From: Candidatus Cloacimonadales bacterium
GTDB lineage: Bacteria > Cloacimonadota > Cloacimonadia > Cloacimonadales > JAIOQZ01
Reading direction: 5' to 3'
NCBI GenBank assembly: GCA_963665815.1
Contig: OY762463.1
Span: forward strand, 416,001 to 480,000
DNA: 64,000 nucleotides
Below the pieces are notes generated by a model. It saw nothing but the letters and a program-made list of their open reading frames with translations, did no database searches and had not been told where the DNA came from. Position 1 is the stretch's first letter. Each line of letters opens with the position of its first letter. Both the position numbers and the translations under genes were made by a program. Positions 14,824 through 39,710 of the stretch are shown piece by piece.

Positions 14824-14865
14824 GTTCCTTAATATTCTCCAAAACATTCTATTCTCGAACCAAAC

Positions 14866-17472: not shown

Positions 17473-17559
17473 TTGTCACTCCCATTTTATTATGGGCAAA
17501 GTACATATTGTTAATGAGATTATGTCAATGTAATAATTTTCATAGATAATGCAGGTGAT

Positions 17560-17690: not shown

Positions 17691-17724
17691 CCATGACTTC
17701 AGCAGGTTAAAATCATTTTATGTA

Positions 17725-18513
17725 TCACTCCCGCATCCAGTCTTTAAATGCTTTAACCTTACGTTTACTGACAATCACATCCTCTGTATACTCAGGTTGA
17801 ATTTTAAGAACAAGCCTGTTGCTGAAGTAAGGTTCTATTCTGCAGATACAATCAAAAGAAATAATCATTTGGCGGTTAATACGGAAGAATTTGTCCGGAT
17901 CAACTGATGATTCGATATCTGCTATTGTCATGTCAACCATATAGCTGTGTCCTTTTGCTGTCATTATATAGGAAAGCTGATTTTTTGAATAAAAATAAGC
18001 AATATTCTGTACCGGAACAGGACGCATCACAGTACCAATGCTGACAAGAAACCTTTCTTTATATCGTTTTCTTCTGTTTTTCATTGCGTCTATAACAGCT
18101 TTAAAATCTGCTGACAAATCAGATTCAGCAGGTTTGAACAATTTGTCATACTTATTCAGGCTATTCTGCAATTCTTTTTCATCAATTGGTTTAAGAAGAT
18201 AGTCTATACTGTTTACCTTGAAAGCCTGAATAGCATATTCATCAAAAGCGGTAGTAAAGATTATCGGAGAATTAATTTCGGCATGTTCAAAAATACTGAA
18301 ACTTAAGCCATCTGAAAGCTGTATATCGAGAAAAACAAGATCATAATTATCAACTGTATTGAAGAACTTAACGGCACTTTCCACAGAGTCAAGACTTGAA
18401 ATGATTTCTGAGTGGGGAAGAAGCTTGTCTATGATTTTCTTAAGTCTTTCAACTGCATAAAATTCATCTTCTACAATAACTATTCTCATATAATTATCCT
18501 TATTGTATTTCAT
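17725..18513 (-). CDS. LytTR-family response regulator
   Basis: IVIVEDE, FLDIQL.DG, FTTAFDEYAIQAF.VNSIDYLLKP, FFRINRQ, VIVSKRK...FKDW. Confidence 0.93.
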   Translation of the reverse strand: MKYNKDNYMRIVIVEDEFYAVERLKKIIDKLLPHSEIISSLDSVESAVKFFNTVDNYDLVFLDIQLSDGLSFSIFEHAEINSPIIFTTAFDEYAIQAFKVNSIDYLLKPIDEKELQNSLNKYDKLFKPAESDLSADFKAVIDAMKNRRKRYKERFLVSIGTVMRPVPVQNIAYFYSKNQLSYIMTAKGHSYMVDMTIADIESSVDPDKFFRINRQMIISFDCICRIEPYFSNRLVLKIQPEYTEDVIVSKRKVKAFKDWMRE

Positions 18514-20239: not shown

Positions 20240-20309
20240 AAATTCTTCTTATTGTTTCAAAAAAATCTGTCAATACTTTCGTGTGTATATTCTGATTTTG
20301 GACAACGAA

Positions 20310-20348
20310 AACACCTTCCATGGAATAAATTTACAGGAAAGGTGCTTT
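20310..20348 (-). terminator. Hairpin downstream of RND permease
   Basis: aacaccttcc...ggaaaggtgctt imperfect inverted repeat. Confidence 0.45.
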
Positions 20349-20363
20349 CATTATAATTACATG

Positions 20364-23300
20364 CTATATGATTTCTTTAAAATCTGCATCTGAATTTGCC
20401 AGATTTTTCAGAGATTCTTCTAAACTAATGTGTTCTTTAAACCTTGTAAGGCCTATTTTACCAAAGAAAGAGTCAATAAGTGAATAAACTACAGGAACCG
20501 CAAACAATGTAAGAAATGTTGAAAAAGCCAGCCCAAATGCAATTGCAACTGCCATTGGCTTATAATCATTAGCTGCAGCTGTTGTTGAGATTATCATTGG
20601 CACAAATCCGGCAATTGTAGTAACCGATGTCATAACAATAGGTCTAAGTCTTACTTTTCCAGCTTCAATAAGTGATCTCCATCTGTCATGTCCCTCCCCT
20701 CGAGATTTGTTAACAAAGTCAACGAGAACAAGAGAGTCATTAACTACAATACCACAAAGAGTTACAAAAGCTATCATTGTCATAAGAGAGAAGGGTAGAT
20801 GTGTAATAGCCAGTCCAAAAATTACACCACAAATTGCGAATGGAATTGTCATCATAACAATTAACGGTTGTACATAGGATTTGAATTGTGTTCCAAGAAT
20901 TGCATATATGAGAAGCATTGCTATAACAAGCGAAATGTACAGAGAATCGAAAGTTTCTTCTTCCTCTTCAACCTCACCGCCAAATTCCAGAACGTAACCA
21001 GGATAATCTTCTATGATGTTATAAAGTGAACCTTTTGTTTTTTCGTCACCCATAAGCATATCATTCACAGTGTCAGATGATTGAGAATACTCCTTGCCGT
21101 CTTTAACATAATTTTTAACCCTTGCAATAATACTGAAGAATCTGTTTCTGTCATAGTGTTCAATAACAGAATAACCACTTGTGATAACAAAGTCTGCTAC
21201 TGCAGATAACTTAATTGAATTACCTGATTCTGTTGGAACAATCAGATTATAAATTTCCTCAAGCTTAATATCCTGTTTTTCATTTGATTCAAGCCTGATA
21301 TCAATTACCTTGTTGTCTACAGTATTGAAAGAACCAATATCCATACCATAAGATGCGATTCTAACTATGTTATGAATCGTTTCATCACTGATTCCATAAA
21401 GCTTAAGTTTCTCCCAGTCAGGATATATCCTTATTTCACTTTTCCCTCTTGCCAGGCTGCTTTGGATCTCAATGACTCCCGGTATATCTTCAAGGTGTTT
21501 TACCACTCTATCACTGATTTCTCTGAATACAGCCATATCCTTTCCACTGATTCTCAGCTCAATATCATCTCCAACCGGAGGTCCTTCTGTACCGCCAGCT
21601 CTGAATGTGAAGCTCTCAACATCGTCAATAGCCTTTACATAATCTCCTATTTTTGCCTTAAGGTGATCATGCGAATACTTCATAAACTCTTCTTCCACAA
21701 CATCAATTTTAATTTCAGCAAAATTGGAATTGGTTATAATTCGTTCATCTTCTTCTAATTGACCAATATTGGTTACAAGAGCAACGACATCATCATTCTG
21801 TTCCATGTGCATGATATGAGACTCAATATTATCAACAATTGATTCAGTATGAGTTATTGCAGTTCCGGGTTTCAGTTTCAAGTTCATGATAATAGTTGTA
21901 GAATATTGTTCAGGGAAAAATTCAATCAGTATTGCTCCTGATGTTAGAAGTAATACTGATAATGCCATTCCTGCAATCAACATCATTATTACAGATTTTC
22001 TATGTCGCAGAGCCCAGACGATTCCATGCTCATATTTTGACACTAGGAATTGTGTGAGTTTGTTTGCTCCTTTAGATGATTTAGCTTTCTTTGTTCCTCC
22101 AAGTTCTACAATATGACATGGAAGTATCAGAAGACACTCTAATAGTGATGCAGAAAGTGCAATAATAACAACAATCGGGAACATTTTGAGAAACTCTCCC
22201 ATATGTCCTTGCATTATAAGCAGAGGTAGAAAAGCAGAAATTGTTGTGGAAACGGCTGATATTACAGGCCACATAATCTCTTTTGTACCTTTTATTGTTG
22301 CATCCTTAACACTGTATCCTTTTTCCAGATACCTCTGTACATTCTCAATCACAATAATTGCATCATCAACAATCATCCCAAGAACCAGAATCAAAGCAAA
22401 AAAACTGAGATTGTTTATTGTTATACCATAAAACTGCATAATCACAAAAGTAAGAAGAAAACTGAAGGGAAGTCCCCATGCAGCAAACAAAGCATTCTTC
22501 CAACCTATAAACATCCACAATACAATAAAAACAAGTATTATACCATATATGGAATTCGATGCCAGAGTCTTTAAGCTTCTGTTAACAACAATAGTGTCAT
22601 CGTTTCGAATATCTACTTCCAGATCAGGAACAGTTTTATTAAAGTCAGCAATAACTTCTCTTACTTCTTCCATTACTGAAATGATGTTGCCTTCTTCACG
22701 CTTATATATAGTAAGGCTTACTCCGGTTTTCATATCAATCCTTGATATGGTCTTAGAATCTTCGAGAGTGTCAGAAACAACAGCTACATCTTTGATCCTT
22801 AAAGTGTTTCCTTCAATATCAGTCCTGATGACTGTTTGTGCAATCTCTTCAACATCATTATAAGTACCCATACTTCTGAGAAGATACTCCTCATTATTAT
22901 GTCTGACTCCACCACCGGCGACATTTCTGCTTCGACTCGCAATTATTGATTCAATTTCACTTAAGGATACATTATGATGTTCAAGCTTATCTGTATCGAC
23001 TTTTATTTTGATTTCTTTTTCTCTCGTTCCAGTAATATCGATTTTAGTTATATTTTCTACTCTGGATATTCTGTCTTTCAGATCATTGGCAATTTCACGT
23101 AATCCATTTTCGTTATATGGACCGGAGAAGCTAACCGAGCAAATTGGATTAACTTCAGCCATGTTAACGCGTTTTACATAGATATCAGATGCTTCTTCAG
23201 GAAGATCCTTAATTCTGTTAACTATCCTGAGAATTGCATCTTCGGTAGCATCAATATCTGCATAAGTGTCTGTTTCAACTTCAATAAATGCAAAACCTTC

Positions 23301-23555
23301 TTCTGCTACAGATTCCATACATCGTAAATTCTGCAGATCAGCTAACTCTTCTTCTATAGGAATCAGAACTTCTTTCTCAATTTGTTCAGGAGATACTCCG
23401 GGATAGGCAACAGAGATTTCGAATATTCCCAAATCAATGTTTGGCATTTCTTCCTTGGGGATTGTTGCGGTTGTGTAAAACCCTGCAACAAATACAATTA
23501 TCATGAATATGTTAACGAGAACAGGGTTCTTTACCGATAAATCAGCTAACGACAT
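20364..23555 (-). CDS. RND efflux permease (AcrB/SwrC-like)
   Basis: YPGVSPEQIE, LGMIVDDAIIVIEN, GIVVNDSLVLVD, RLRPIVMTSVTT, PMAVAIAFGL. Confidence 0.93.
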   Translation of the reverse strand: MSLADLSVKNPVLVNIFMIIVFVAGFYTTATIPKEEMPNIDLGIFEISVAYPGVSPEQIEKEVLIPIEEELADLQNLRCMESVAEEGFAFIEVETDTYADIDATEDAILRIVNRIKDLPEEASDIYVKRVNMAEVNPICSVSFSGPYNENGLREIANDLKDRISRVENITKIDITGTREKEIKIKVDTDKLEHHNVSLSEIESIIASRSRNVAGGGVRHNNEEYLLRSMGTYNDVEEIAQTVIRTDIEGNTLRIKDVAVVSDTLEDSKTISRIDMKTGVSLTIYKREEGNIISVMEEVREVIADFNKTVPDLEVDIRNDDTIVVNRSLKTLASNSIYGIILVFIVLWMFIGWKNALFAAWGLPFSFLLTFVIMQFYGITINNLSFFALILVLGMIVDDAIIVIENVQRYLEKGYSVKDATIKGTKEIMWPVISAVSTTISAFLPLLIMQGHMGEFLKMFPIVVIIALSASLLECLLILPCHIVELGGTKKAKSSKGANKLTQFLVSKYEHGIVWALRHRKSVIMMLIAGMALSVLLLTSGAILIEFFPEQYSTTIIMNLKLKPGTAITHTESIVDNIESHIMHMEQNDDVVALVTNIGQLEEDERIITNSNFAEIKIDVVEEEFMKYSHDHLKAKIGDYVKAIDDVESFTFRAGGTEGPPVGDDIELRISGKDMAVFREISDRVVKHLEDIPGVIEIQSSLARGKSEIRIYPDWEKLKLYGISDETIHNIVRIASYGMDIGSFNTVDNKVIDIRLESNEKQDIKLEEIYNLIVPTESGNSIKLSAVADFVITSGYSVIEHYDRNRFFSIIARVKNYVKDGKEYSQSSDTVNDMLMGDEKTKGSLYNIIEDYPGYVLEFGGEVEEEEETFDSLYISLVIAMLLIYAILGTQFKSYVQPLIVMMTIPFAICGVIFGLAITHLPFSLMTMIAFVTLCGIVVNDSLVLVDFVNKSRGEGHDRWRSLIEAGKVRLRPIVMTSVTTIAGFVPMIISTTAAANDYKPMAVAIAFGLAFSTFLTLFAVPVVYSLIDSFFGKIGLTRFKEHISLEESLKNLANSDADFKEII

Positions 23556-24670
23556 GTAACCTCCTTCGCAGTAATCTCAGAGTCCGAATTACTATTATTT
23601 TTTAAAGACATTCCAGACTTAATTTTACCGGAAGGTGAAAACACAACAACATCACCAAAATCGAGACCTGAGCTTATTTCAATTTTATTCTGAAACTTGA
23701 GTCCTATGCTTATCTCTCTTTTCTCAACAATGCCATACTTATTTATTACATATACAAAATCTCTGCTGTAAATAGTAGAAATGTACCTGACAGGAACTAC
23801 TTTCATATTGTTATACTCTTTTGAATCAATAAATCCTTCTACTACTTGCCCGGAAAACACTTTTTCTGGTTTATCCACTATTATCTCCACAGGATAGTTC
23901 ATGTTATCCTCATCAGGTTTAAAACCTATACCGGAAATTCTTCCTGTGATTTCAGTTCTATCGCTTTTAACAACAAGGGTTAGTTCTTTTCCAACCTCAA
24001 TCTGTGAAACCTGAGACTCAGGTACACCTGTTGATACCTTCATTTTACTATTATTCACAATGCTGCAAATTATTGTTCCCACAGATACGAAATCACCTTT
24101 TTCAATGTCAATTGATGCAACAACACCATTAAACGGAGCTATGAAGTTAGTTCTTTCGAGTTCCATTTTAATTGATTCCAGATCTGCTTTAGCACCTTCA
24201 CACTGAGCTTTTGCTTCATCATATTGTGCAATAGACAGCTTATTTTCCTTTTCAGAAATTGCGTTTAACTCAAAAAGTCTTTTATTGCTGTTTGCTATTA
24301 CTTCACGAGAATCAAGATTTGCTTCCGCAGCTTTAACAATTGCTTTTGCCTGTTTAATTTTTAAAACTATATCTTTATTGTCTATCGACGCAACTCTTTC
24401 ACCTTTAACAACTTTATCACCAAGCTTTTTATATATATTTACGATTTTTCCGTTCACTTCTGATATCATTTCAACATCATTTATCCCTTCCAGTACTCCT
24501 GTAACTCTGATTCTGGACTGAATAACTTCCGGTTTTATTTTCAGGAACTCTATATCACTTGTCTGTTCTCTACTGTATACGTTTGTTTTATCAACTTCTT
24601 CATCTTCACAACCTGTTAGTATGAACAGAATTGCAAGTATGAGTATTATGTATCCTGATGAATTTTTCAT
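23546..24670 (-). CDS. RND periplasmic adaptor (MFP) lipoprotein
   Basis: Lipobox ILTGC, SEVNGKI...GDKV.KG, IAPFNGVV, SGL..GD. Confidence 0.9.
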   Translation of the reverse strand: MKNSSGYIILILAILFILTGCEDEEVDKTNVYSREQTSDIEFLKIKPEVIQSRIRVTGVLEGINDVEMISEVNGKIVNIYKKLGDKVVKGERVASIDNKDIVLKIKQAKAIVKAAEANLDSREVIANSNKRLFELNAISEKENKLSIAQYDEAKAQCEGAKADLESIKMELERTNFIAPFNGVVASIDIEKGDFVSVGTIICSIVNNSKMKVSTGVPESQVSQIEVGKELTLVVKSDRTEITGRISGIGFKPDEDNMNYPVEIIVDKPEKVFSGQVVEGFIDSKEYNNMKVVPVRYISTIYSRDFVYVINKYGIVEKREISIGLKFQNKIEISSGLDFGDVVVFSPSGKIKSGMSLKNNSNSDSEITAKEVTCR

Positions 24671-24703
24671 TTTATCTCCTTATTGTAAATTTTTAGAAAA
24701 AGC

Positions 24704-25999
24704 CTACAGCTCTTTAAGGCTGAATGCAGGTACTAAGTAGTGTAATTTGGATTTCGTCATTAGAAAGTCGTAATAGCAGTTCTCATGTTTAATTTTTGCC
24801 TTATTAAATGCTATAGATGAATTAAGAAAATCCGTGGCTGAAATACTGTTCTCTTCAAGTTGTATTCTGGATTTATCAAGAAGTTCTTGAGCTCTTTCCA
24901 TTTCTATTCTCGCAGAAACAACACATTTGGCAATAGCAATCAAGTTATTGAACTCTCCGGAAATTTCAATACTCAAATTTCTTCGAAGCTTCTCCAGTTT
25001 ATTTTCTGCAATATATACATTTCTTTTGCTTTTAATAAGATCGCTTCCTTTACTTAATAAAGGAAATGCATCCATAGAAAGATTCAGAGCTATGTAATCA
25101 GATCTCTCATATGAGGATTGATTCTCATTTTTATCCCAATCTTTACCTCCGGAAATGTATATCGAGGGTAAGAAATCCAAATGTGCCTGTAATCTGCTTA
25201 GTTTAGCATTTTTCACATCAAGTTTTGAGTTAAGAATAGTTTGGTTTTGCTTTTCAGCAGCTTTAATCAACAGATTAATTCTATAAGTGATTTCTTTTTT
25301 ACTGAAATTTATACAACGATCTATTTCAAGATCGTATTTGCTGATATTCGGATCTTCCAGAACAAAGTCATTTAAATCTATTAAATACCCCAGTTCTTTA
25401 TGTACTTGATCATAGTCATTTCTATATTTTATAACATCGCTTTCTCTTTCTGAGAGATTTATTGAATAATTCAGGTATTCCGTTCTTGAAATTGCTCCTG
25501 TTTCAAATCTGATTTTGGCAATTTCTTCTTCCCTTTGTGCGTGTTCAAGACTTGTCTGAGCATATTCTAAAATTCTTTTCTTTAGTAATCCCTCATAAAA
25601 AAGGAACTCTATTGTGTACTTAATTGAGTTTATTGTCTGATCTTTACTATTTTTGAAAATCTTGCTATTATTTCCTGCTTCAAAAATTCCGCAATAGATT
25701 TTACCACCATCAAACAGATATTGTCGTCCTTCATACCCATATCCTCTTGACTCTATATCATTTTGAGCTCCCTTATTGTATTTAACTGATATTGATGGTA
25801 AAAGCTTTTCATATGCCTTGAGTTTTTCTGTTGCAGCATTTTTACTCATAATCTCAGCAATCTTTACATCATGGTTATTCTCAAGTCCCAGCTTGATTGC
25901 CTCATCCATTGTCAATGATGCAAGTACGAAACAGCTGAGTGATAGCATGAGTGTAATTATTAACCTGTTCATTTTGTCTCCTTTTAGTTTTTGATTCAA
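24704..25999 (-). CDS. TolC-family outer-membrane efflux protein (likely start 25972)
   Basis: AIKLGLENN, LLPSI / FLPSI repeats, LFDGG, RFETGAIS; position in RND operon. Confidence 0.85.
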   Translation of the reverse strand: MNQKLKGDKMNRLIITLMLSLSCFVLASLTMDEAIKLGLENNHDVKIAEIMSKNAATEKLKAYEKLLPSISVKYNKGAQNDIESRGYGYEGRQYLFDGGKIYCGIFEAGNNSKIFKNSKDQTINSIKYTIEFLFYEGLLKKRILEYAQTSLEHAQREEEIAKIRFETGAISRTEYLNYSINLSERESDVIKYRNDYDQVHKELGYLIDLNDFVLEDPNISKYDLEIDRCINFSKKEITYRINLLIKAAEKQNQTILNSKLDVKNAKLSRLQAHLDFLPSIYISGGKDWDKNENQSSYERSDYIALNLSMDAFPLLSKGSDLIKSKRNVYIAENKLEKLRRNLSIEISGEFNNLIAIAKCVVSARIEMERAQELLDKSRIQLEENSISATDFLNSSIAFNKAKIKHENCYYDFLMTKSKLHYLVPAFSLKEL

Positions 26000-26006
26000 A
26001 TTAATT

Positions 26007-26036
26007 GAGAAAGGGCAGAAGCCTGTCCTTTCTCAT
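26007..26036 (-). terminator. Intra-operon hairpin between 26042 ORF and tolC-like gene
   Basis: tgagaaagggcag-aagc-ctgtcctttctca inverted repeat. Confidence 0.55.
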
Positions 26037-26041
26037 TTCCG

Positions 26042-26689
26042 CTATTGAACAAGTTCAATTACTTCTTTTGGTGATCCCGGACCTTCTTCCGGAACAACTG
26101 ATTTGAGTAACATGCCGTCTGATTCTCTTACCCAGTATACTCCGCTCCATACAAAAGCAGGTACAAGATTGGATTTAAGAACCAGTTTTTGAGCTGCGAC
26201 TTTCTGGCCGTTGATGTTGATTGTATCTTTACCCTTCTTTACAAAAACCAATTTATGAGTCTCTAACCCTTCTTCAAAGTCTTCTTCATCGTCCATTTCT
26301 TCAATAAAGAACATTTCGATTTTTTTTTTATTGTTACTCAAAATATGTTTGAAATCAAATGACTGCTGCTGCCACATAACTCCGTCAGTTTCTGCATAAA
26401 ACTGCCTGTTGTCTGTCACAAAAATTTTACCATTTTCTTTGTGCATGGCAAATACAACACTGTTATCATTAATTACTACTTTTGAAATATTTCTATCATT
26501 ATTCATGGTATAGGTAGTAGTTTTTGTCCCCTGTACTTCTTTTAATATGTATTGGTTGTTATCGAAAATTCTTTCTACAAATATCTCTGATGTTCTATTT
26601 TTGCATGTAAGCTTGTATTTCAATATATTATCAGCGCTGATCAATGTTACTGAAATCAGTATTAGTATAAGTATTATTATGTTTTTCAT
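26042..26689 (-). CDS. Hypothetical secreted protein
   Basis: Signal peptide, beta-rich; GGAGAGG RBS. Confidence 0.7.
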   Translation of the reverse strand: MKNIIILILILISVTLISADNILKYKLTCKNRTSEIFVERIFDNNQYILKEVQGTKTTTYTMNNDRNISKVVINDNSVVFAMHKENGKIFVTDNRQFYAETDGVMWQQQSFDFKHILSNNKKKIEMFFIEEMDDEEDFEEGLETHKLVFVKKGKDTININGQKVAAQKLVLKSNLVPAFVWSGVYWVRESDGMLLKSVVPEEGPGSPKEVIELVQ

Positions 26690-26700
26690 TATCCTCTCCT

Positions 26701-27465
26701 TTAGTCCTCTTTATCCCATTTCCACGCACCAATCTCCACAGCCACATATGGTCCTTGACGTTTCATGCCAGGTCCACCTGTAATATCAATCGCATGGGTT
26801 TCCCAGTCTGTGGAGAAAAGATCATTCTCAGGTAAATCAATGCCGAATGTGTATCCTGCTCTTAGACCAAAAGCTAAACCTTCCAGTTCAAGCATGTTGA
26901 TATACTTGTTTCTCTTAAAGAAAGGTACTTTTACTAAATAATCGAACTGAACACCTATATCAATTGTGATTTCTTTCTTCTCAAAAGTTATTTCTCTTTT
27001 AGGGTCTGCCAGAGCATCATCAAAACTGATTTTATCCTTTTCTGTAACAGTCATCTCGAACTGGCTGTATCCACCGGATATCACCGGATAGAATTTAAAG
27101 TTGTCATTTTCATATAGGATACGACCATAACCTATCATGAGGTTCATTTCATTTTCATAATCAATTACAAATTTTTTGCCGTTTTTATTGGCTTTCGTTT
27201 CTTCGGAATAAGCAATTGAGAACTCTCCCGTGAAAACATTTTTTTCTTCAATTGTAGTTTGTCTGAAAAAGAACCCATTCACATTTTCATCAAATTTTTT
27301 GAACCCGTTTTTTTTCATTTTATTGTTCAGATTCTTATAATCAAGTTTCTGAACTGATGCACCACCGTAGTATATCACGAGTTTTTTGTCTTCACATTCA
27401 TTTTCTTCTGCGTTAAGTAGATATAATGCTCCCAGAATCATCATTATAATTATTATCCTCTTCAT
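26701..27465 (-). CDS. Hypothetical exported protein, possible outer-membrane beta-barrel
   Basis: Signal peptide; alternating strands IDIGVQFDY, FGLRAGYTF, GPYVAVEIG. Confidence 0.6.
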   Translation of the reverse strand: MKRIIIIMMILGALYLLNAEENECEDKKLVIYYGGASVQKLDYKNLNNKMKKNGFKKFDENVNGFFFRQTTIEEKNVFTGEFSIAYSEETKANKNGKKFVIDYENEMNLMIGYGRILYENDNFKFYPVISGGYSQFEMTVTEKDKISFDDALADPKREITFEKKEITIDIGVQFDYLVKVPFFKRNKYINMLELEGLAFGLRAGYTFGIDLPENDLFSTDWETHAIDITGGPGMKRQGPYVAVEIGAWKWDKED

Positions 27466-27638
27466 TTTTTTCTCCTCTTAATTGTTGCTTTTTTGCTGGT
27501 AAAAGAATTGTTAACATCCTCCTCAAGTGAGTGGGTGTTTACTGAGGACATGATTTCCCTTACAATAAAGAGACTTAATGTCTCGAGTATGATGTAAGTT
27601 ACTGAAATCAGTAAAAATATTGAGATAGCTATATTCAT
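27462..27638 (-). CDS. Small single-TM protein (58 aa), first gene of the efflux operon
   Basis: Not in ORF track; AAGGAG RBS, MNIAISIFLLISVTYIILETLSLFIVREIMSS...KKATIKRRKK*, TGA overlaps next ATG (ATGA). Confidence 0.6.
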   Translation of the reverse strand: MNIAISIFLLISVTYIILETLSLFIVREIMSSVNTHSLEEDVNNSFTSKKATIKRRKK

Positions 27639-27706
27639 TTATCACTCCTTAGTTTTCATTCGAGTGAATAATATGAAAATTGGTCCTAAGATTGGGGATT
27701 ATGAAA

Positions 27707-27757
27707 GCGAAAGGGGAGATGTGTATGCTGAATGGGAATAGCTTTAAGTTGAATGGG
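27707..27757 (-). promoter_or_regulatory. Putative LytTR binding site (three direct repeats, 21-bp period)
   Basis: gcGAAAGGG, ctGAATGGG, ttGAATGGG with G at 27709, 27730, 27751, upstream of operon ending in lytS/lytTR genes. Confidence 0.6.
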
Positions 27758-27872
27758 TAAAGAAAGTATGTTTTATAGTATTACATTTCTGGAGCTTGAT
27801 TGTGTTATGTTAGTTTTGTGTTTATAGGATATTAGAAACAGAATTATTACTTATAACTTCTAAATGTATAGT

Positions 27873-28510
27873 CTACTGAGTTATTTTAGTCTTCAACATC
27901 TCATAATCTATCTTGAAATTATGTCTTGGATCTCTTGTAACTTTTTTCATTACTATCAGTTTATCATAGGCAATTTTTATTGCAGATAGTTTTTCTTTCA
28001 AACTTGCCGTATCAAATATTCTCGATGTTTGTGCAACAAGGCAAATCTTGTACCTGACTTTAATGATCGTCCCGAATTCTATCTCAGGAATAATATCCAG
28101 TTTACATTCAACCTGAAAAGAAAATATATGTGTTCCATTATTGTTAATTATGGACTTGGTTCTACCAGTTAAATACAGATTTCCAAATGAATCAAGATAC
28201 TCGGAGTCTCCTGTCCTTTGAATTGCAACATCACCAATCTTATTATCTTCAAGTATCAGTTCAGATAATTCTTCCATATTATTTATTTTTATGGGTCATC
28301 AGTAATTGAAAGAATGCATACTTTGATGGAATCAACAGGTTTACAAACAAGCAAACCAGATGATTTCATCGGATTACTCTCAAGAAATTCATCGACAGAT
28401 ATAAAACTGACAGGTTCTGCTTCAGATGATCCGTACACTATTAAGGAATAGCAATCAGGGAATGCTTCCTAAAGTATTCTCGCAGGTGATGGAAAAACTG
28501 GAGTACAACC
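27873..28510 (-). pseudogene. OleC-like AMP-binding (adenylate-forming) enzyme, truncated and frameshifted
   Basis: Upstream frame GCTPVFPSPARIL*EAFP...VYGSSEAEPV...ITDDP*, then frameshift into ORF 27873-28277 with RTGD..YLD..GNLYLTGR and RDPRHN.KIDY; N-terminal half absent. Confidence 0.75.
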
Positions 28511-28559
28511 CTGAAACAACTACAGCCTGACAACCTATAAATTAAACACCGTTAAGACA
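28508..28559 (+). repeat. 52-bp array boundary repeat, copy 1
   Basis: accctgaaacaactacagcctgacaacctataaattaaacaccgttaagaca, identical at 29987, 31472, 32907. Confidence 0.95.
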
Positions 28560-28572
28560 ACAAATAATAATA

Positions 28573-28664
28573 TTGACATTTATCTGTACCTGTGATCTGT
28601 TATACTCGTGTGAAAATTTACATACCGAAAGCAATACTAACAAGGAAGATAAGGAGAGTAAACA
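28573..28664 (+). promoter_or_regulatory. Repeated promoter/RBS module (also about 30052-30143 and 31537-31628)
   Basis: TTGACA, then extended -10 TGtTATACT (TATGCT in copy 2) 22 bp later, AAGGAG RBS before ATG. Confidence 0.55.
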
Positions 28665-29897
28665 ATGAAAAGGGTTCTATTAATTGCCGCAATGATTATG
28701 GTAGGCGCTTTGTTGTTTGGGGAAATTGAGTATGACAGTGGATTTAACTATAATTCGTTTAAAAGCACACATGATTATACTATTATTAAGAAGAAGTATT
28801 TTAAGGAACCATTAGCAAATGAGTTTCTGGTCTCAAGTCCTACAGAAACAAGTGCAGGTGAACTTGTGCTGGAGCGTATATATGAAAAGGATCACAGAAA
28901 AACATTAGTATACTTTGATCAGAATCTGAACAGAGTTAACATGGGAACACACAAAAACTGGATCTACACAAAAGAAGGTAAATATATTTGGTATGCAGAC
29001 TGGATAAATGAAGCGATTAGTGATTATGAACAAAAATCAGTCACAACGGATTTTGGATTATACAAGAAGCAAACAAATGGTTACTCAAAAACTACTACAC
29101 AGGTTAATACGGAGGAATTCTTCAAAGTTTATGACAGTGGTTACATTTCATTATCAAGTGAGTATTTTGAAGAGGATGCCCATTACTATGAGAATGGCTT
29201 CTTAAATATGAAAACTAATGAAGAAATCAGTATAAACCTGTTAAGTGAGTATTCAAAACCTGGAGACGATTTTGAGTACAGTCTTGCATATATTGATGAA
29301 AGTAAAGTTGTATACACTTTTTTCTTATATTATTACAATGAGAAAATTGGGGGTGGGCCTTTTAATGGTAATGCAGGAATTGTTTATTACAATGTTGATG
29401 GGAGTATAAAAAAAATGATTGAGCTCCCTTACAAGTATGCTGGTTGTGTTAGTACATCACCCAATGGAGATGTTATAATTGTAGAAGAACTGACAGGAAG
29501 ATATTTCACCGATGGTCCCACAGGAAATAGAGCTCTCGTTTTCGAAGATGGCCGTATTGTTACAGGCAAGAGTATTGGATCAGAGCTTTGGTCATCTCGC
29601 TGGTCTGCAGATGGATCTATGCTTTTCTCCAGTGGATGCCTTATCGATGTACAAGCCGGTAAAAAAATAATGTCAATTAAAGGAGATGTTTATCCGTCTA
29701 ACAAAGTAGCTGGAAGAGTACTTGCAATTACAGATGATAGACTGAGAGTATTTGATATAGAAACGAAAGAATTGATAATGTCATATCCAATGAATACTGC
29801 AACAGGATACTATGGGATTTCAGGAGATGGGAATGAGATTATCGGTGTGTCCCAGACAAATTATGTGAAAATTAAAATTGGTGAGAGGAAGAAATGA
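28665..29897 (+). CDS. Secreted beta-propeller-like protein, array paralog 1
   Basis: Signal peptide; WD40/TolB-like turns STSPNGD, WSADGS, GISGDGNE, RVFDI.TKE. Confidence 0.8.
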   Translation: MKRVLLIAAMIMVGALLFGEIEYDSGFNYNSFKSTHDYTIIKKKYFKEPLANEFLVSSPTETSAGELVLERIYEKDHRKTLVYFDQNLNRVNMGTHKNWIYTKEGKYIWYADWINEAISDYEQKSVTTDFGLYKKQTNGYSKTTTQVNTEEFFKVYDSGYISLSSEYFEEDAHYYENGFLNMKTNEEISINLLSEYSKPGDDFEYSLAYIDESKVVYTFFLYYYNEKIGGGPFNGNAGIVYYNVDGSIKKMIELPYKYAGCVSTSPNGDVIIVEELTGRYFTDGPTGNRALVFEDGRIVTGKSIGSELWSSRWSADGSMLFSSGCLIDVQAGKKIMSIKGDVYPSNKVAGRVLAITDDRLRVFDIETKELIMSYPMNTATGYYGISGDGNEIIGVSQTNYVKIKIGERKK

Positions 29898-30143
29898 AAT
29901 CTCCTCTTAAATCGACGTGCAGCGTCAAACAATAATTATTGCACCGTAACACCACCACTCACACCCAAAACAACCTACATAAAACCACCCTGAAACAACT
30001 ACAGCCTGACAACCTATAAATTAAACACCGTTAAGACAACAAATAATAATATTGACATTTATCTGTACCTGTGATCTGTTATGCTCGTGTGAAAATTTAC
30101 ATACCGAAAGCAATATTAAAAAGGAAGATAAGGAGAGTAAACA
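29898..30143 (+). repeat. 246-bp inter-cassette spacer, copy B (52-bp core 29987-30038)
   Basis: Near-identical to 31383-31628. Confidence 0.95.
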
Positions 30144-31382
30144 ATGAAAAGGGTTCTATTAATTGCCGCAATGATTATGGTAGGCGCTTTGTTGTTTGGG
30201 GAAATTGAGTATGACAGTGGATTTAACTACAGAACTAAAGAGGGAACACATAATTATACTGTTGTAAAGCAAAAAACGTTTAAGAAACCGTTAGCTTATA
30301 AGTATGTACTATCTCCACCAACAGAAACAAGTGCGGGTGAACTCCTATTTGAGCATGATGTTAAAAAAATAAATGGAAAAACTACTTATATCCTGAATAG
30401 TTTTAACAGAAACTTGGATAGAGTGAGTATGGGGAGTAATGGTGTGTGGCTATGGACTAAGAACGGTAAGTATCTTAGAAACAGGGTATTTGGTTATGAA
30501 AGATTATCAAATAATCAGAGAAAGAGGGCTCTGCTGAAAGATGTAATATATAAGTATTCTAACAACACATATAAACCAATAAACTATATAAAACCTAAAC
30601 AGGAGATAACAGAAATTACTAATAACGGTTATTTCAAGATTACAGATTTATATGATGATTTAGGACCATATTGGCAAGGGGTCCAGAAGTTCAACATGGA
30701 TAAGGCAATAATATTTAATTTTGAGTATGATGCTGACAAGCCAAATTACAGCATAGAAAGAAGACTAGAGTACGTTGATGACTCAAAGATTGTTTTTTCA
30801 TTTTTCTCATATTATGCAAGTGAGGAATCAATGCACGAAATTTTGGATGCTCGAGCAGGTATAATCATATACAATCATGATAGAACATTACGGAGGAAAA
30901 TTGATTTACCCTTTAGAGGATTAGGGGAAGTTTACTCATCACCTGATGGAAGCGTTTTTGCATTAGTTGAAGGTGACCCTCATGGTATAATTAATGATAA
31001 AAATAGTGCACTTCTGTATGAAGATGGGCGTATAGTAACAAGTGAGTCAATAGGATGCAGCCTCTCACCTGATTTCTGGTCTGCAGACGGCTCTTTAATG
31101 ACAACAAACTGTGGGGATTTGATTGATGTTATGAAAGGGAAAAAATTAATGAGTATCAAAGAGGCTGGGCCTCCATCAAATGCTTCAGCAGGAAGAATAC
31201 TTGTTACCTATAAACATATGATAAAAGTATTTGATATAAAGACAAAAGAAATGATAGCTTCATTCTCCATTGGAAGTGGTGCACTTGGTTATAACTTTAG
31301 TATATCTGGTGATGGAACTGAAGTTCTTACCGTTACAGACATGAAGTATACTAAAATTAAAATTGGTGAGAGGAAGAAATGA
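30144..31382 (+). CDS. Secreted beta-propeller-like protein, array paralog 2 (divergent core)
   Basis: First 86 nt and last about 30 nt identical to paralog 1; interior diverged but keeps PTETSAGEL, EDGRIVT, WSADGS, ISGDG. Confidence 0.8.
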   Translation: MKRVLLIAAMIMVGALLFGEIEYDSGFNYRTKEGTHNYTVVKQKTFKKPLAYKYVLSPPTETSAGELLFEHDVKKINGKTTYILNSFNRNLDRVSMGSNGVWLWTKNGKYLRNRVFGYERLSNNQRKRALLKDVIYKYSNNTYKPINYIKPKQEITEITNNGYFKITDLYDDLGPYWQGVQKFNMDKAIIFNFEYDADKPNYSIERRLEYVDDSKIVFSFFSYYASEESMHEILDARAGIIIYNHDRTLRRKIDLPFRGLGEVYSSPDGSVFALVEGDPHGIINDKNSALLYEDGRIVTSESIGCSLSPDFWSADGSLMTTNCGDLIDVMKGKKLMSIKEAGPPSNASAGRILVTYKHMIKVFDIKTKEMIASFSIGSGALGYNFSISGDGTEVLTVTDMKYTKIKIGERKK

Positions 31383-31628
31383 AATCTCCTCTTAAATCGA
31401 CGTGCAGCGTCAAACAATAATTATTGCACCGTAACACCACCATCCCTACCCAAAACAACCTACATAAAACCACCCTGAAACAACTACAGCCTGACAACCT
31501 ATAAATTAAACACCGTTAAGACAACAAATAATAATATTGACATTTATCTGTACCTGTGATCTGTTATACTCGTGTGAAAATTTACATACCGAAAGCAATA
31601 CTAACAAGGAAGATAAGGAGAGTAAACA
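31383..31628 (+). repeat. 246-bp inter-cassette spacer, copy C (52-bp core 31472-31523)
   Basis: Near-identical to 29898-30143. Confidence 0.95.
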
Positions 31629-32861
31629 ATGAAAAGGATTCTATTAATTGCCGTAATAATTATGGCAGGTGTTTTAATGTATGGGGAAATTGAGTATGAC
31701 AGTGGATTTAACTATAATTCGTTTAAAAGCACACATGATTATACTATTATTAAGAAGAAGTATTTTAAGGAACCATTAGCAAACGAGTTTCTGGTCTCAA
31801 GTCCTACAGAAACAAGTGCAGGAGAACTTGTGCTGGAGCGCTTTTATGAAAAAGGAGACAGAAGAACCTTAGCATACTTTGATCAGAATCTGAACAGAGT
31901 TAACATGGGAACACACAAAAACTGGGTCTACACAAAAGAAGGTGAATACATTTGGTATGCCGACTGGACAACTGAAGTAACTAGTGATAATGAGCAAAAA
32001 TCAGTCACAACGGATTTTGGATTATACAAGAAGCAAACAAATGGTTACTCAAAAACTACTACACAGGTTAATACGGAGGAATTCTTCAAAGTTTATGACA
32101 GTGGTTACATTTCATTATCAAGTGAGTATTTTGAAGAGGATGCCCATTACTATGAGAATGGCTTCTTAAATATGAAAACTAATGAAGAAATCAGTATAAA
32201 CCTGTTAAGTGAGTATTCAAAACCTGGAGACGATTTTGAGTACAGTCTTGCATATATTGATGAAAGTAAAGTTGTATACACTTTTTTCTTATATTATTAC
32301 AATGAGAAAATTGGGGGTGGGCCTTTTAATGGTAATGCAGGAATTGTTTATTACAATGTTGATGGGAGTATAAAAAAAATGATTGAGCTCCCTTACAAGT
32401 ATGCTGGTTGTGTTAGTACATCACCCAATGGAGATGTTATAATTGTAGAAGAACTGACAGGAAGATATTTCACCGATGGTCCCACAGGAAATAGAGCTCT
32501 CGTTTTCGAAGATGGCCGTATTGTTACAGGCAAGAGTATTGGATCAGAGCTTTGGTCATCTCGCTGGTCTGCCGATGGATCTATGCTTTTCTCCAGTGGA
32601 TGCCTTATCGATGTACAAGCCGGTAAAAAAATAATGTCAATTGAAGGATCGGTTTATCCCTCAAATAAGTCAGCAAGTAGAGTTCTAGTAAAATATGGAA
32701 ATCGATTAAGAGTATTTGATATTAACACAAAAGAATTGATAATGTCTGTACAAGTAAATCCATATACAAGTCATTTTCGAATTTCTGGTGATGGAACCGA
32801 GATTATCGGTGTGTCCCAGACAAATTATGTGAAAATCAGGATTGATGGGAGAAAGAAATAA
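31629..32861 (+). CDS. Secreted beta-propeller-like protein, array paralog 3
   Basis: 31995-32642 matches paralog 1 29031-29678 with one synonymous difference; different signal peptide and C-terminal blade. Confidence 0.8.
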   Translation: MKRILLIAVIIMAGVLMYGEIEYDSGFNYNSFKSTHDYTIIKKKYFKEPLANEFLVSSPTETSAGELVLERFYEKGDRRTLAYFDQNLNRVNMGTHKNWVYTKEGEYIWYADWTTEVTSDNEQKSVTTDFGLYKKQTNGYSKTTTQVNTEEFFKVYDSGYISLSSEYFEEDAHYYENGFLNMKTNEEISINLLSEYSKPGDDFEYSLAYIDESKVVYTFFLYYYNEKIGGGPFNGNAGIVYYNVDGSIKKMIELPYKYAGCVSTSPNGDVIIVEELTGRYFTDGPTGNRALVFEDGRIVTGKSIGSELWSSRWSADGSMLFSSGCLIDVQAGKKIMSIEGSVYPSNKSASRVLVKYGNRLRVFDINTKELIMSVQVNPYTSHFRISGDGTEIIGVSQTNYVKIRIDGRKK

Positions 32862-32871
32862 CACAGAAAAC

Positions 32872-32958
32872 CCACCATCCCTACCCAAAACAACCTACAT
32901 AAAACCACCCTGAAACAACTACAGCCTGACAACCTATAAATTAAACACCGTTAAGACA
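32872..32958 (+). repeat. Terminal partial spacer, copy D (52-bp core 32907-32958)
   Basis: ccaccatccctacccaaaacaacctacataaaacc + 52-bp core, similarity stops right after gttaagaca. Confidence 0.92.
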
Positions 32959-32966
32959 TATCGAAA

Positions 32967-32996
32967 TGCTAATTACTTCAAGTGATTAGCAAAAAA
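32967..32996. terminator. Hairpin right after the array
   Basis: tgctaattactt-c-aagtgattagca followed by A-run. Confidence 0.4.
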
Positions 32997-33165
32997 TAGA
33001 TGAAATTTAGTAAAATCACTTTGCATTTAAAATTTATTCAGACTAATTATACCTTTTCATCCCTATATTTCAAAGTAAATCCAATAAAAAACATTTACAA
33101 AAAACACCAAATAATCTAATATTGATGAAAATAAATCTATTTAATATTTTGCAGAGGAATTATAC

Positions 33166-34746
33166 ATGGAAACTAAGAAACCACTGATACTTATAGTTGA
33201 TGATATACCAAGAAATTTACAGGTACTCGGTAACATTCTACAGAAATACGATTGCGAAATTGCTATAGCTGCTGGTGGAAAACAGGCTCTTAGCATTGTA
33301 AATAATATTATTCCTGATCTTATCCTGCTGGATGTAATGATGCCCGATATGAATGGTTTTGATGTCTGTATAAAGATTAAAGAGATGTACCCGAAAGAAG
33401 ACATTCCAATAATTTTCCTGACTGCAAAAACAGAAACAAAAGACGTAGTGCGTGGCTTCGAAATAGGTGCTGTAGACTACGTAACCAAACCTTTTAACGG
33501 TACAGAGTTAATCTCCAGAGTAGATACGCACATTTCTCTACGTAGAGCCAGAATGGAGCAGAAACGTATTAATAAAGAACTTGAAATAGAGATAAGCGAG
33601 AGAAAAAAAGCTGAAGAGAAGGTCACAAACCTTTACGAATCACTTCTCGAAGACCTAAAAACAGCATCAATTGTTCAGTCCTACCTCGTTCCTTCCGGTA
33701 TAGTTCATTACGACGGAGTGATGTTCAACTCCTTCTATTCTCCTTCCACAGACGTTGGAGGTGATTCTTTCGATATCATCAAAGTTGATGATAATAAATT
33801 CTATGTCTATATGGCTGATATTTCCGGACACGGGGTTCAGGCAGCACTTTTAATGACCGCAGTTAACTCTCTGCTCCGCATCATGATAGAACAGAATCAT
33901 AATGAGGGACCCTTATTTATTATGGAGCATTTTAATCAGATAGCCATGGAGAAGCTCTTCAACCACACACGTTCTTATATGACAATGATTCTTGGGGTTG
34001 TGGATATAAAGGAAAAAACTTTCAGCTATTGCAATGCAGGACATCCGCCTGTTATTGCAATTGACAAGGTTACAAAAAAGGTTGATACGATCATGGATAT
34101 GGAAGGTTCGATTCCGGTTGGCTGGAAAAACAACTATAAATACACTGAAGACAAACTTCATGTGGTTAATCTTAGTGCGGATAAATTCTACTTTATGTAT
34201 ACAGACGGTTTGACAGAATGCACCGATCCTGATGGAGATGAGCTGGATATTGATGGTCTGGAACGATATATTGAAGAACACTGCAAATCTGACAACAAGC
34301 TGATGATGCCGCAGAGATTGAAAACCATGCTTGTGGAAAGCGGTTACCAGACAGAGTCGGACGACTTCTCAATTATGACATTCTCCTTATATGATGAAGA
34401 GTTCTATAAGGATACTCTGATTCAGCAAATACCGCTTAATACATTTATCATAAAACCTTATGTGCTTGAACTGATGGAGTTCCTGGAAGAACAAAAATAT
34501 CCTCTTGCAAAGACCGAATCCATTATGCAGGTTTATAACAAAGTTGTGGATATGACTATGGATAGGAACAGGCATAGTGTTACAGATAAAAAAGTTACAG
34601 TACTTTGCGGAGCTGATACTGAAGGTAAGTTTTCTATCACTATTCTGGATTATGATGATTCTATTTCTGAAGCTCATCTGGCAAAATCCAAAGCTAAGTA
34701 TAAGCGATATGAAGATGTGAATGTAAGCCAGTGGGTGTTTGAGTAG
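33166..34746 (+). CDS. Response regulator receiver fused to SpoIIE/PP2C phosphatase (RsbU-like)
   Basis: ILIVDD, LLDVMMP, FLTA, DYVTKPF; VGGDSFD, MADISGHGVQAAL, CNAGHP, YTDGLTE, DD. Confidence 0.92.
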   Translation: METKKPLILIVDDIPRNLQVLGNILQKYDCEIAIAAGGKQALSIVNNIIPDLILLDVMMPDMNGFDVCIKIKEMYPKEDIPIIFLTAKTETKDVVRGFEIGAVDYVTKPFNGTELISRVDTHISLRRARMEQKRINKELEIEISERKKAEEKVTNLYESLLEDLKTASIVQSYLVPSGIVHYDGVMFNSFYSPSTDVGGDSFDIIKVDDNKFYVYMADISGHGVQAALLMTAVNSLLRIMIEQNHNEGPLFIMEHFNQIAMEKLFNHTRSYMTMILGVVDIKEKTFSYCNAGHPPVIAIDKVTKKVDTIMDMEGSIPVGWKNNYKYTEDKLHVVNLSADKFYFMYTDGLTECTDPDGDELDIDGLERYIEEHCKSDNKLMMPQRLKTMLVESGYQTESDDFSIMTFSLYDEEFYKDTLIQQIPLNTFIIKPYVLELMEFLEEQKYPLAKTESIMQVYNKVVDMTMDRNRHSVTDKKVTVLCGADTEGKFSITILDYDDSISEAHLAKSKAKYKRYEDVNVSQWVFE

Positions 34747-34852
34747 AGAAAACTACACCACTTTATCTTATTGTCAAATTCACAGCTTATAATATTTCTT
34801 CTCTCTATAAGAAACTGCTCCTTCAAATGCCAGTGATTTACTAAAACTACAT

Positions 34853-38649: not shown

Positions 38650-39054
38650 TTATTTAACACCTTTTGATAAAAGATATTCGGAATACTCCATGTCTGTCTG
38701 TTTAATGTGTTTTGTCAGCCATTTGCGAAGAAATGTCATGAGCTCAAGTGATACAATTGTTTTTTGTGAGCCCTTTGTTTTCATCCGATTCACTTCGTCA
38801 AAAATGAATTTGTGCTTACGCTTATGGGTTGCGGAATCTATATAGAAATACTTATCGAAGAGCTTTTCTTCATATGCAAAATGCTCATGTGTGTAATCAA
38901 TCAATTCCTTAAAAATACTATTCAATACTTCATCACTATTCCCATTCTGCAATGCTGCATGTAGTTCATTAATTATGCCAACTAGTTTTTTATGTTGTTC
39001 ATCGATGCTTGGGATTTTTACACTGAAACTGCTATCCCATGTGAATAATGCCAT
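38650..39054 (-). CDS. Bacteriohemerythrin
   Basis: W..SFSV.I.SID.QHKKL, HF..EE, H...H, WLTKHI..TD. Confidence 0.93.
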   Translation of the reverse strand: MALFTWDSSFSVKIPSIDEQHKKLVGIINELHAALQNGNSDEVLNSIFKELIDYTHEHFAYEEKLFDKYFYIDSATHKRKHKFIFDEVNRMKTKGSQKTIVSLELMTFLRKWLTKHIKQTDMEYSEYLLSKGVK

Positions 39055-39305: not shown

Positions 39306-39710
39306 TTATCTCATACCATGAGAAATCATGAATTCAGAATATTCCTTATCTGTTCCCTTAATGTGTTTGGTCAGCCATTTTGTCAAAAACTGCATTAATT
39401 CAATAGATAACACAGTTCCCTGACCCTCTACTTTACTCATTCTGTCGATCTCATCAAAAATAAATCTGTGTTTTCTCTTATGCGCACCTCTATCGGGATA
39501 CTTGTACATTTCGAAATACTTTTCTTCAAAAGAAAAATGTTCATGTGTATAATCAATAAGCTCTTTAAATACTTTTTCGATAATATCACTCGTTTTTCCC
39601 ATTGTCATAGCATCATGAACACGATTAATGATATCCATTAACTTCTTGTGCTGAGTGTCTATACTGTCGATACCGACACTGAAACTGTTGTCCCATACGA
39701 ATAAAGCCAT
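39306..39710 (-). CDS. Bacteriohemerythrin (tandem paralog)
   Basis: Same di-iron ligand set; same length (134 aa). Confidence 0.93.
   Translation of the reverse strand: MALFVWDNSFSVGIDSIDTQHKKLMDIINRVHDAMTMGKTSDIIEKVFKELIDYTHEHFSFEEKYFEMYKYPDRGAHKRKHRFIFDEIDRMSKVEGQGTVLSIELMQFLTKWLTKHIKGTDKEYSEFMISHGMR

Follow-up and report, generated by a model that had tools for sequence, protein, structure and literature searches.

Tandem propeller-family paralogs bracketed by a 52-bp repeat in a Cloacimonadales genome: a probable outcome of duplication, truncation, and gene conversion

Tandem exported paralogs with conserved ends and a variable middle, shaped by unequal crossing-over and gene conversion, form the lpl lipoprotein cluster of Staphylococcus aureus and the babA/babB genes of Helicobacter pylori. 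In the vsp, vlp, and vsa families of Mycoplasma, each gene has a conserved 5' non-coding region and a signal peptide; these genes encode repetitive lipoproteins and are switched by site-specific inversion or promoter slippage. Here, we analyzed a related arrangement in the genome of Candidatus Cloacimonadales bacterium (GCA_963665815.1; G000). The window, a stretch of 64,000 nucleotides (nt) of contig OY762463.1 (positions 416,001 to 480,000, forward strand), contains three genes for proteins of ~410 residues that are bracketed by four exact copies of a 52-bp sequence, the 52-mer (window positions 28508 to 32958). This locus is very probably an ordinary recombining tandem paralog array of an undescribed propeller family, with the remains of at least four units, and no new cassette system.

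Like lpl and babA/babB, the array consists of co-oriented paralogs with conserved 5' and 3' ends, mosaic blocks, and a copy-number difference, with no dedicated recombinase. It differs from both in that its genes belong to a propeller family without a Pfam model, that its host is a member of the Cloacimonadota, and that the whole 246-nt upstream region has been homogenized. With the Mycoplasma families it shares a conserved 5' non-coding region, a putative signal peptide, divergent mature parts, and a clustered family. In contrast to those families, all genes here are co-oriented, and they have no lipobox cysteine, no recombinase, and no notable slippage tract. Every feature of a tandem paralog array under concerted evolution is present, namely, head-to-tail units on the same strand with their own flanks, mosaicism, flank identity within the genome, and a difference in copy number.

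Array anatomy and the nature of the 52-mer

The elements of the array and of the segment in which it lies are listed below in window coordinates. Units 1 to 3 each hold one intact gene, and the comparison genome G001 is a sister species of the same genus.

27766-33076, no strand: 5.3-kb segment replaced by ~93 bp in G001; contains the ligase remnant and the whole array
27873-28468, minus strand: frameshifted 3' remnant of a fatty-acid coenzyme A (CoA) ligase gene, cut at the left array edge (frames 27873-28295 and 28289-28468)
28508-28664, plus strand: left-truncated upstream region of gene 1, starting with 52-mer copy 1 (28508-28559); equals positions 87-246 of the 246-nt region at 99% identity
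28665-29897, plus strand: gene 1 (P0001, 410 residues), N-terminal hydrophobic helix, then predicted propeller; 5' end and 3' tail as in gene 2, body as in gene 3
29898-30143, plus strand: complete upstream region (246 nt) of gene 2; 52-mer copy 2 lies at 29987-30038; 97% identical to the third copy
30144-31382, plus strand: gene 2 (P0002, 412 residues), divergent paralog, 46% amino acid identity to gene 1; closest relative is a 412-residue gene of G001 (56%)
31383-31628, plus strand: complete upstream region (246 nt) of gene 3; 52-mer copy 3 lies at 31472-31523
31629-32861, plus strand: gene 3 (P0003, 410 residues), 90% amino acid identity to gene 1; signal peptide and last ~70 codons differ
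32862-32958, plus strand: fourth-unit remnant, 97 nt of upstream region (query positions 55-141 at 100%), ending with 52-mer copy 4 (32907-32958), after which the sequence is unrelated

A repeat search placed the starts of the four exact copies at 28508, 29987, 31472, and 32907, giving spacings of 1479, 1485, and 1435 nt around three intact co-oriented open reading frames (ORFs), as an initial annotation made from the sequence had described. The third period is the shortest because ~44 nt are missing 3' of the gene 3 stop. When the same repeat is viewed in a 97-nt register (28463/29942/31427/32862), copies 2 to 4 are 96 to 100% identical across all 97 nt and copy 1 matches the final 52 nt only. 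Copies 1 to 3 share ~300 nt rightward, over which copy 4 does not extend. As a consequence, only 52 nt are common to all four copies, and the outer copies are indeed trimmed in the way that had been noted. The genome-wide search for the 52-mer that had been proposed was carried out on the complete 3,963,599-bp contig (51-mer, up to three mismatches). It returned the four array sites and no others, with none on the reverse strand.

Every unit carries a perfect TTGACA (position 28572 in unit 1, with counterparts in the other units) and an AGGAG 8 nt before the ATG. The motifs behind the promoter-like box and ribosome-binding site of the initial annotation are therefore present, but no site listed by a sigma-70 consensus scan uses the TTGACA at 28572 or its counterparts. 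That scan was uninformative, with 26 promoter-like sites against 24.0 expected from shuffles and three terminator-like sites against 2.6. A promoter of its own in each unit is plausible.

The 246-nt spacer between genes 2 and 3 (31383-31628), used as a query against the genome, matched the second spacer (97%), the region before gene 1 (99%, from position 87), and the stretch after gene 3 (100%, positions 55-141), with no further match above chance. Among 151 genomes of the order, the region occurs four times in the genome under study and once in the sister species (86% identity, query positions 12-246, a 235-nt homolog); the sole match in the other 149 genomes is 27 nt long (G025, E 2.2e-4) and was taken as chance. 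In the sister species, the single copy immediately precedes the first gene of a tandem pair of paralogs. It is preceded by a hairpin and then a T-run, read here as the likely terminator of the preceding gene.

In a five-way alignment, homology to the sister copy is unbroken through both edges of the 52-mer. Over its 52 nt the two species show 7 mismatches, compared with ~6% mismatches (counted from the alignment) over the 108 nt that lead from it to the ATG. The 52-mer is thus neither delimited nor specially conserved in the sister species, and between the species it diverges more than the promoter-proximal part. Because homology is continuous through both edges and the sequence occurs there only once, the 52-mer is no marker of unit boundaries, contrary to what its trimmed outer copies had been taken to mean. 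It appears to be the overlap of two truncated upstream regions, that of the first unit, cut on the left, and that of the fourth unit, cut on the right, and not a discrete element.

Approximately 85 nt of the upstream region (31427-31510 and counterparts), including most of the 52-mer, consist almost purely of C and A on the plus strand, and for this reason the 52-mer cannot fold. Neither strand of the 52-mer or of its surrounding 114 nt gave a fold as single-stranded DNA (-0.1 to -0.8 kcal/mol, z +0.5 to +0.7), and as RNA the 246-nt region folded no better than shuffles (z -0.11). The only inverted repeats in or around the 52-mer are two short overlapping A/T-rich palindromes (12 to 13 nt, 77 to 83%), and Rfam gave no match in 27500-33500 at E values up to 1. 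The C/A tract might serve as an unstructured leader or trailer, or bind a protein. A pair of LytS-type kinase and LytTR regulator genes is adjacent in both species. Candidate sites for a LytTR-type regulator were looked for by eye in the upstream region; no convincing second half-site was seen and no claim is made.

A further observation concerns the gene ends. The paralog genes end in ...AAGAAATGA, with an ATG that overlaps the stop (29894-29935, 31379-31420), and in the genome under study this ATG opens a frame of 13 codons only. The stop of the second paralog in the sister species overlaps the start of a 101-residue cysteine-rich ORF with a hydrophobic N-terminus (L018 9046-9351, minus strand). 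In addition, the frame of a family fragment elsewhere in the genome under study (3824976-3825584) continues into a hydrophobic tail of similar kind that contains Cys. The stop-overlapping frame may be what is left of a small partner gene that was coupled to the paralog.

Mosaic identity, locus edges, and copy number

In 50-nt bins, the upstream non-coding sequence is 96 to 100% identical in all three units, whereas unit 2 is 36 to 74% identical to unit 1 between 28731 and 29860; the non-coding parts are more conserved than the core of paralog 2, as first noted from the sequence. Units 1 and 2 share exact runs at 28508-28603 and 28642-28750, which cover the upstream region, the signal peptide, and the first mature residues, and at 29868-29957, which covers the last codons and the trailer. 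Units 1 and 3 are identical at 28508-28673 and have one difference in 29031-29678. Between 29679 and 29860, all three units differ by 30 to 45%. Among 556 three-way informative sites, 472 group units 1 and 3, 51 group units 1 and 2, and 33 group units 2 and 3. These sites fall into 79 runs, a number that none of 5000 permutations reached (minimum, 132). Given this block-wise identity, no single tree applies to the whole unit, as is characteristic of unequal crossing-over combined with gene conversion. The proposal of an expandable cassette locus holds insofar as each gene has its own upstream region and copy number and content differ from those of the sister species, but the identity pattern is that of a gene-conversion mosaic.

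The same contrast between ends and core extends to the sister species. The upstream regions are 97 to 100% identical inside the genome versus 86% to the sister copy, as in concerted evolution. Gene 2 and the 412-residue gene of the sister species share 78 to 100% of their amino acids at residues 1-70 and 291-412 and 38% at residues 71-290. In core bins, the proportion of synonymous differences (pS) is 0.76 to 0.94 and therefore saturated, compared to 0.10 to 0.68 for flanking orthologs (74 to 95% amino acid identity). The cores thus predate the species split by far, and the ends were exchanged or homogenized. The ratio of nonsynonymous to synonymous substitution rates (dN/dS) is 0.13 to 0.81 in every bin with an estimable dS in the gene 1/gene 3 and gene 2/sister comparisons, indicating functional genes under purifying selection. 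No signal of positive selection was found in these bins; most core bins are saturated and carry no power in this respect.

The longest exact runs between units lie in the upstream and 5' coding stretches and measure 96 to 166 nt, which is long enough for homologous recombination. The array would grow and shrink by RecA-type homologous unequal crossing-over between these identical stretches, and short gene-conversion tracts would keep the ends identical within the genome while the cores stay anciently diverged. With uniform ends, all copies would share regulation and export signal, and the diverged middle blades would give the paralogs different binding specificities.

Comparisons of the paralogs with each other, and of the nearest genes of the two species, show conserved ends around a deeply diverged core. 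Such a pattern would also be produced by programmed variation of the pilE/pilS or msp2 type, in which the 5' and 3' ends act as handles and old cores are swapped between the expressed array and broken copies. Broken or partial family copies do exist in the genome (1237637-1238515 and 3824976-3825584). The former shares exact runs of 67 and 31 nt with gene 2, and its N-terminal half is closer to the 412-residue gene of the sister species than gene 2 is. However, a complete upstream region precedes each of the three array genes, which leaves no single expression site, and only two broken copies were found, which do not make a donor library. None of the other family loci of the genome has the upstream region, dN/dS stays below 1 wherever it is measurable, and the contigs of the one sample examined (see below) hold no variant letters in the array. 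Programmed variation is, on this balance, distinctly unlikely. It is also unlikely that the locus is a gene-conversion repertoire for a secreted binding protein, with the conserved upstream/signal-peptide end and the C-terminal blades as handles and cores exchanged with the broken copies; we know of no described repertoire of this kind in an uncultivated, non-pathogenic anaerobe.

The edges of the locus point to rearrangement. The window is collinear with contig C8 of the sister species on both sides, at 17725-27765 (837010-826971) and at 33077-34748 (826878-825207). The left block contains genes for a LytTR regulator, a LytS-type kinase, AcrB, HlyD, and OEP, together with two small genes; the right block contains a response regulator with a SpoIIE phosphatase domain. 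The stretches between these blocks and the array (27766-28507 and 32959-33076) have no match in the 140 kb of the sister genome examined. The paralog pair of the sister species sits at the other side of the same 10-kb efflux/two-component block, after the LytTR gene. The comparison of cassette number and order that had been suggested thus yields three genes in the genome under study against two different ones, at another position, in the sister species (two genomes of the genus). Together with this synteny, a GC content of 0.33 to 0.36 in the array, equal to that of the flanks, indicates that the locus was rearranged within the lineage. No clean insertion boundaries or target duplications were found at the locus.

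On the left, the array abuts the CoA-ligase remnant. Of the 555 positions of the fatty-acid CoA ligase model NF006754, one ligase frame matches 412-546 (E 1.6e-11) and the other 317-373 (E 2e-8), with weak additional support from matches to CoA ligases in the PDB. The remnant lacks the first ~316 codons, and the loss coincides exactly with the start of the array. Because the left edge cuts a pseudogene, it is more likely an illegitimate breakpoint than a recombination site, and the truncations of the first and fourth units are both best explained as rearrangement breakpoints.

Synonymous divergence between the two species was also uneven across the collinear block (17725-27465 against L018 44-9011). 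The lowest pS values, 0.10 to 0.12, belong to the LytTR regulator and the LytS-type kinase, followed by 0.27 for the 215-residue gene, 0.51 for AcrB, and 0.68 for HlyD, of which the amino acid identity is only 74%. This suggests recombination between the two lineages inside the efflux/two-component block.

Assembly across near-identical repeats of 650 and 250 nt is difficult, and the genome was obtained from a metagenome-type sample, so that the array could in principle be an assembly artefact, either a collapsed or expanded repeat or a strain chimera. Against this, the genome is a single 3.96-Mb contig with a completeness of 98.66%. The Logan contigs inspected come from three public runs of a single sample, possibly that from which the genome was assembled; the check is thus independent of the assembler's repeat resolution and not of the organism. 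These contigs contain 93 to 94% of the sampled words of the region; run X4 had no cover. A 648-nt unitig common to genes 1 and 3 has 1.85, 1.91, and 1.98 times the depth of an 829-nt unitig specific to unit 2, and a 144-nt unitig common to units 1 and 3 only (28530-28673) has ~2.2 times that depth. In all three runs, these values (1.85 to 2.2 times) correspond to two A-type units per B-type unit and fit the assembled A-B-A' order. Moreover, the flank unitigs run into the first and last 52-mers, with the left one ending at 28537 and the right one beginning at 32929, each 30 nt inside the outermost copies (layout 27000-34000). No variant letters were reported in the array in these contigs. An artefact is accordingly exceedingly improbable. 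One contig joint (30268 to 31020) is no deletion variant and is explained by the broken paralog at 1.238 Mb, in which the exact 67-nt and 31-nt runs shared with gene 2 flank a shorter middle. The junction of a one-unit circle would equal the tandem junction in sequence.

Comparison with cassette and immunity arrays

Four exact 52-mers bracket each gene, the segment that contains them is absent from the sister species, and that species has its own pair across the 10-kb block. This raises the question of a cassette array built by site-specific recombination, similar to an integron or to a recombinase-associated acquired interbacterial defense (rAID) array. The 52-mer would then be the site of a recombinase encoded elsewhere, and units would be captured or excised as circles; the orphan-immunity proposal falls under this reading. 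Pfam scans of 48 window ORFs (15 of at least 134 residues and 33 of at least 127 residues) found no integrase/recombinase, transposase, reverse transcriptase, Cas, or toxin domain, which agrees with the absence of recombinase, reverse transcriptase, and toxin genes in the initial annotation.

That annotation also held that the locus fits neither integrons, CRISPR, nor diversity-generating retroelements, and each comparison bears this out. The array resembles an integron in its repeats between co-oriented genes. However, it lacks an intI gene with attI and Pc, no integrase or recombinase family being found in the ORFs scanned, and it has no attC-like imperfect palindrome, since the 52-mer folds no better than shuffles. 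In addition, integron cassettes carry unrelated, mostly promoterless genes, whereas those of the array are paralogs (46 to 90% amino acid identity), each with its own long upstream region. CRISPR repeats of ~25 to 50 nt alternate with short unique spacers; here, the repeats are spaced by 1435 to 1485 nt holding whole genes, and there is no cas family in the ORFs scanned and no Rfam CRISPR match. Diversity-generating retroelements combine a reverse transcriptase with a template/variable repeat pair that differs at adenines; here, no reverse transcriptase family is present in the window ORFs scanned, and the differences between units are block-wise mosaics rather than adenine-specific (adenine bias uncounted).

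The likeness to rAID arrays is closer. These are defined by a tyrosine recombinase, short assorted immunity genes, and conserved intergenic motifs (PMC12247911). The array shares with them co-oriented genes with conserved intergenic sequence (246 nt, 97 to 100%) and a content that varies between relatives. It differs in that the gene on its left is a CoA-ligase remnant and not a tyrosine recombinase at the array head, and in that its genes are co-oriented paralogs of one family with 410 to 412 codons instead of assorted immunity genes of ~100 to 300 codons. The intergenic conservation would arise here because the gene's own upstream region has been duplicated and converted.

No immunity family was recognized on the paralogs in Pfam, NCBIfam, or PADLOC, although an undescribed immunity family would escape such searches, and no type VI context was seen. 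At nine other family loci, we found no recurrent partner and no effector-like neighbor. The neighbors there encode an ABC ATPase, a protein with a type IX secretion system (T9SS) tail, TPR proteins, a TetR regulator, a sulfur transporter, thiamin pyrophosphokinase, adenylosuccinate synthetase, an epimerase, and a resistance-nodulation-division (RND) pump. The suggestion of an orphan-immunity array against secreted effectors consequently finds no footing in either the database matches or the neighborhoods. With cargo drawn from one family, no recombinase in the ORFs scanned, no hairpin or substantial inverted repeat at the 52-mer, a single copy in the sister species that is not delimited at the 52-mer edges, a broken gene as left edge, and no defense or effector family match, a site-specific cassette array is very improbable.

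The propeller family and its members

No Pfam family was assigned to P0001, P0002, or P0003 at E values up to 0.01, with the thresholds of WD40 (PF00400) and PD40 (PF07676) not reached, and NCBIfam and PADLOC gave no usable match. Similarity to WD40/PD40 was seen only through the family profile, in the C-terminal third (HMMER, residues ~290-410). An AlphaFold2 model of P0002, built on a six-sequence alignment, has a mean predicted local distance difference test score (pLDDT) of 72.9 and a predicted template modeling score (pTM) of 0.74, with an N-terminal helix at residues 2-17 and beta strands from residue 36 to 410. Foldseek matched it to G-beta/RACK1 with a probability of 1.0 at template modeling (TM) scores of only 0.3 to 0.47. 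The independent aligner VIA gave Z scores of 10 to 13.5 to eIF2A, bacterial DPP4, BamB, and other propellers over residues ~35-411. Sequence identity to the structural matches is 6 to 14%. With moderate confidence, a WD40-like beta-propeller is predicted to span the mature protein, its blade number uncounted. The prediction is reminiscent of BamB, the TolB C-terminal domain, and the DPP4 N-terminal domain in that a single propeller would cover the mature protein (Z of 10 to 13 to bacterial DPP4 and BamB chains). It differs in that the paralogs fall below the threshold of every Pfam and NCBIfam family and that no partner or function is transferable from these proteins.

The N-terminus is hydrophobic and carries no lipobox cysteine, and the paralogs have no T9SS tail. 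The secreted beta-propeller of the initial annotation is hence retained at moderate confidence as to fold, and as to secretion to the extent that a hydrophobic N-terminus implies it. As a best guess, the proteins may be diversified periplasmic or surface binding proteins of which the middle blades differ between paralogs. The other half of the earlier proposal, a variable repertoire of binding proteins, is plausible.

A profile search of 1.84 billion representative proteins gave 224 matches at E values up to 1e-3. All seven at E values up to 1e-30 come from the two genomes of this genus, as genes or pieces of genes. Full-length relatives of ~400 residues without a Pfam family (including the distant P0013, P0017, P0020, and P0023) follow at 1e-19 to 1e-6, and most of the remaining matches are large WD40/PD40 proteins aligned to residues ~290-410. 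Within the order, a family match (E up to 1e-5) is present in 17 of 151 genomes and in 14 of 119 high-quality genomes. In four genomes (G003, G006, G084, and G112), several matches are clustered, and these clusters contain blocks of 74 to 94% identity. The family therefore has no Pfam model, is patchy in the order, and is often tandem, with close members found only in this genus. A word-index search with P0002 found itself and the sister gene only, which is no evidence of rarity, as the index missed the 45%-identical paralogs of the window itself. Scans of metagenome contigs with a protein pattern and with a 31-nt promoter pattern found nothing. The nearest ESM Atlas clusters are unnamed hypothetical proteins of ~390 to 417 residues, followed by BamB/PQQ/WD40/PD40 proteins; these serve as leads only, at a recognition of 1894 against a guide value of 2300. 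No literature was found on beta-propellers in Cloacimonadota.

Outside the array, the genome under study contains two intact distant paralogs (625367-626554 and 3823115-3824362). It also holds a broken family copy with an internal deletion (1237637-1238515, minus strand), which adjoins an RND pump gene, and a C-terminal family fragment (3824976-3825584). A 137-residue ORF is duplicated near the broken-copy and fragment loci (1237637-1238515 and 3824425-3825584), and a 102-residue ORF beside the fragment is presumably the end of an IS3-type transposase. An RND pump adjoins the family at two loci of this genome and in the sister species, which may be coincidence.

Several points weigh against reading the locus as a recombining array of exported propellers. 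The same anatomy would result from a 52-bp direct repeat that already surrounded a single ancestral gene (R-X-R to R-X-R-X-R), and only two genomes bear on the matter; recombination at such an ancestral R-gene-R arrangement would still be homologous and not site specific. The identity of the upstream regions could stem partly from purifying selection on a regulatory element and not from conversion alone. The sister genome is a metagenome-assembled genome in 20 contigs, in which a collapsed repeat is possible, and the reads examined for the array are contigs of one sample, possibly the source sample. As to the protein, residues 150-232 are poorly modeled (stretches with pLDDT below 50), the alignment behind the model has only six sequences, and the hydrophobic N-terminus is the one feature that suggests export. 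Unequal crossing-over and conversion as the mechanism, export, and a binding role would nevertheless account together for the anatomy, the mosaic, the continuous single homolog in the sister species, the broken left edge, the unstructured 52-mer, the lack of recombinase domains, and the purifying selection wherever it is measurable.

Other features of the window are given here for completeness. An 868-residue ORF (14866-17472, minus strand) encodes a NACHT/nSTAND3 NTPase with C-terminal leucine-rich repeats and has a weak PADLOC match to mad8 (E 7e-4). It lies in a stretch (14537-17724) without a counterpart in the 140 kb of the sister genome compared, and it is possibly a STAND-type defense gene in a variable spot. 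Two 134-residue hemerythrin-domain genes form a tandem pair (38650-39054 and 39306-39710, minus strand), and two adjacent 210-residue ORFs without a Pfam family (13198-13830 and 14003-14635, plus strand) are possibly another. Large exported proteases and other proteins with FlgD-Ig or T9SS C-terminal sorting domains are encoded at 1760-7066 (minus strand), 7171-9102 (minus strand), and 40573-42996 (plus strand). They include a 1768-residue gingipain-like C25 peptidase and an 807-residue clostripain-family protein, and their sorting domains indicate that the organism uses type IX secretion.

The main value of the analysis is negative. A pattern that looks cassette- or integron-like is here very probably a by-product of ordinary tandem duplication, truncation, and gene conversion, and so it has no place among new mobile or defense architectures. 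Beyond this, the Cloacimonadales hold an undescribed, patchy family of putatively exported propellers of ~400 residues that tends to form recombining tandem clusters. If the cores are specific to ligands or partners, the family could report what these syntrophic anaerobes sense or bind.

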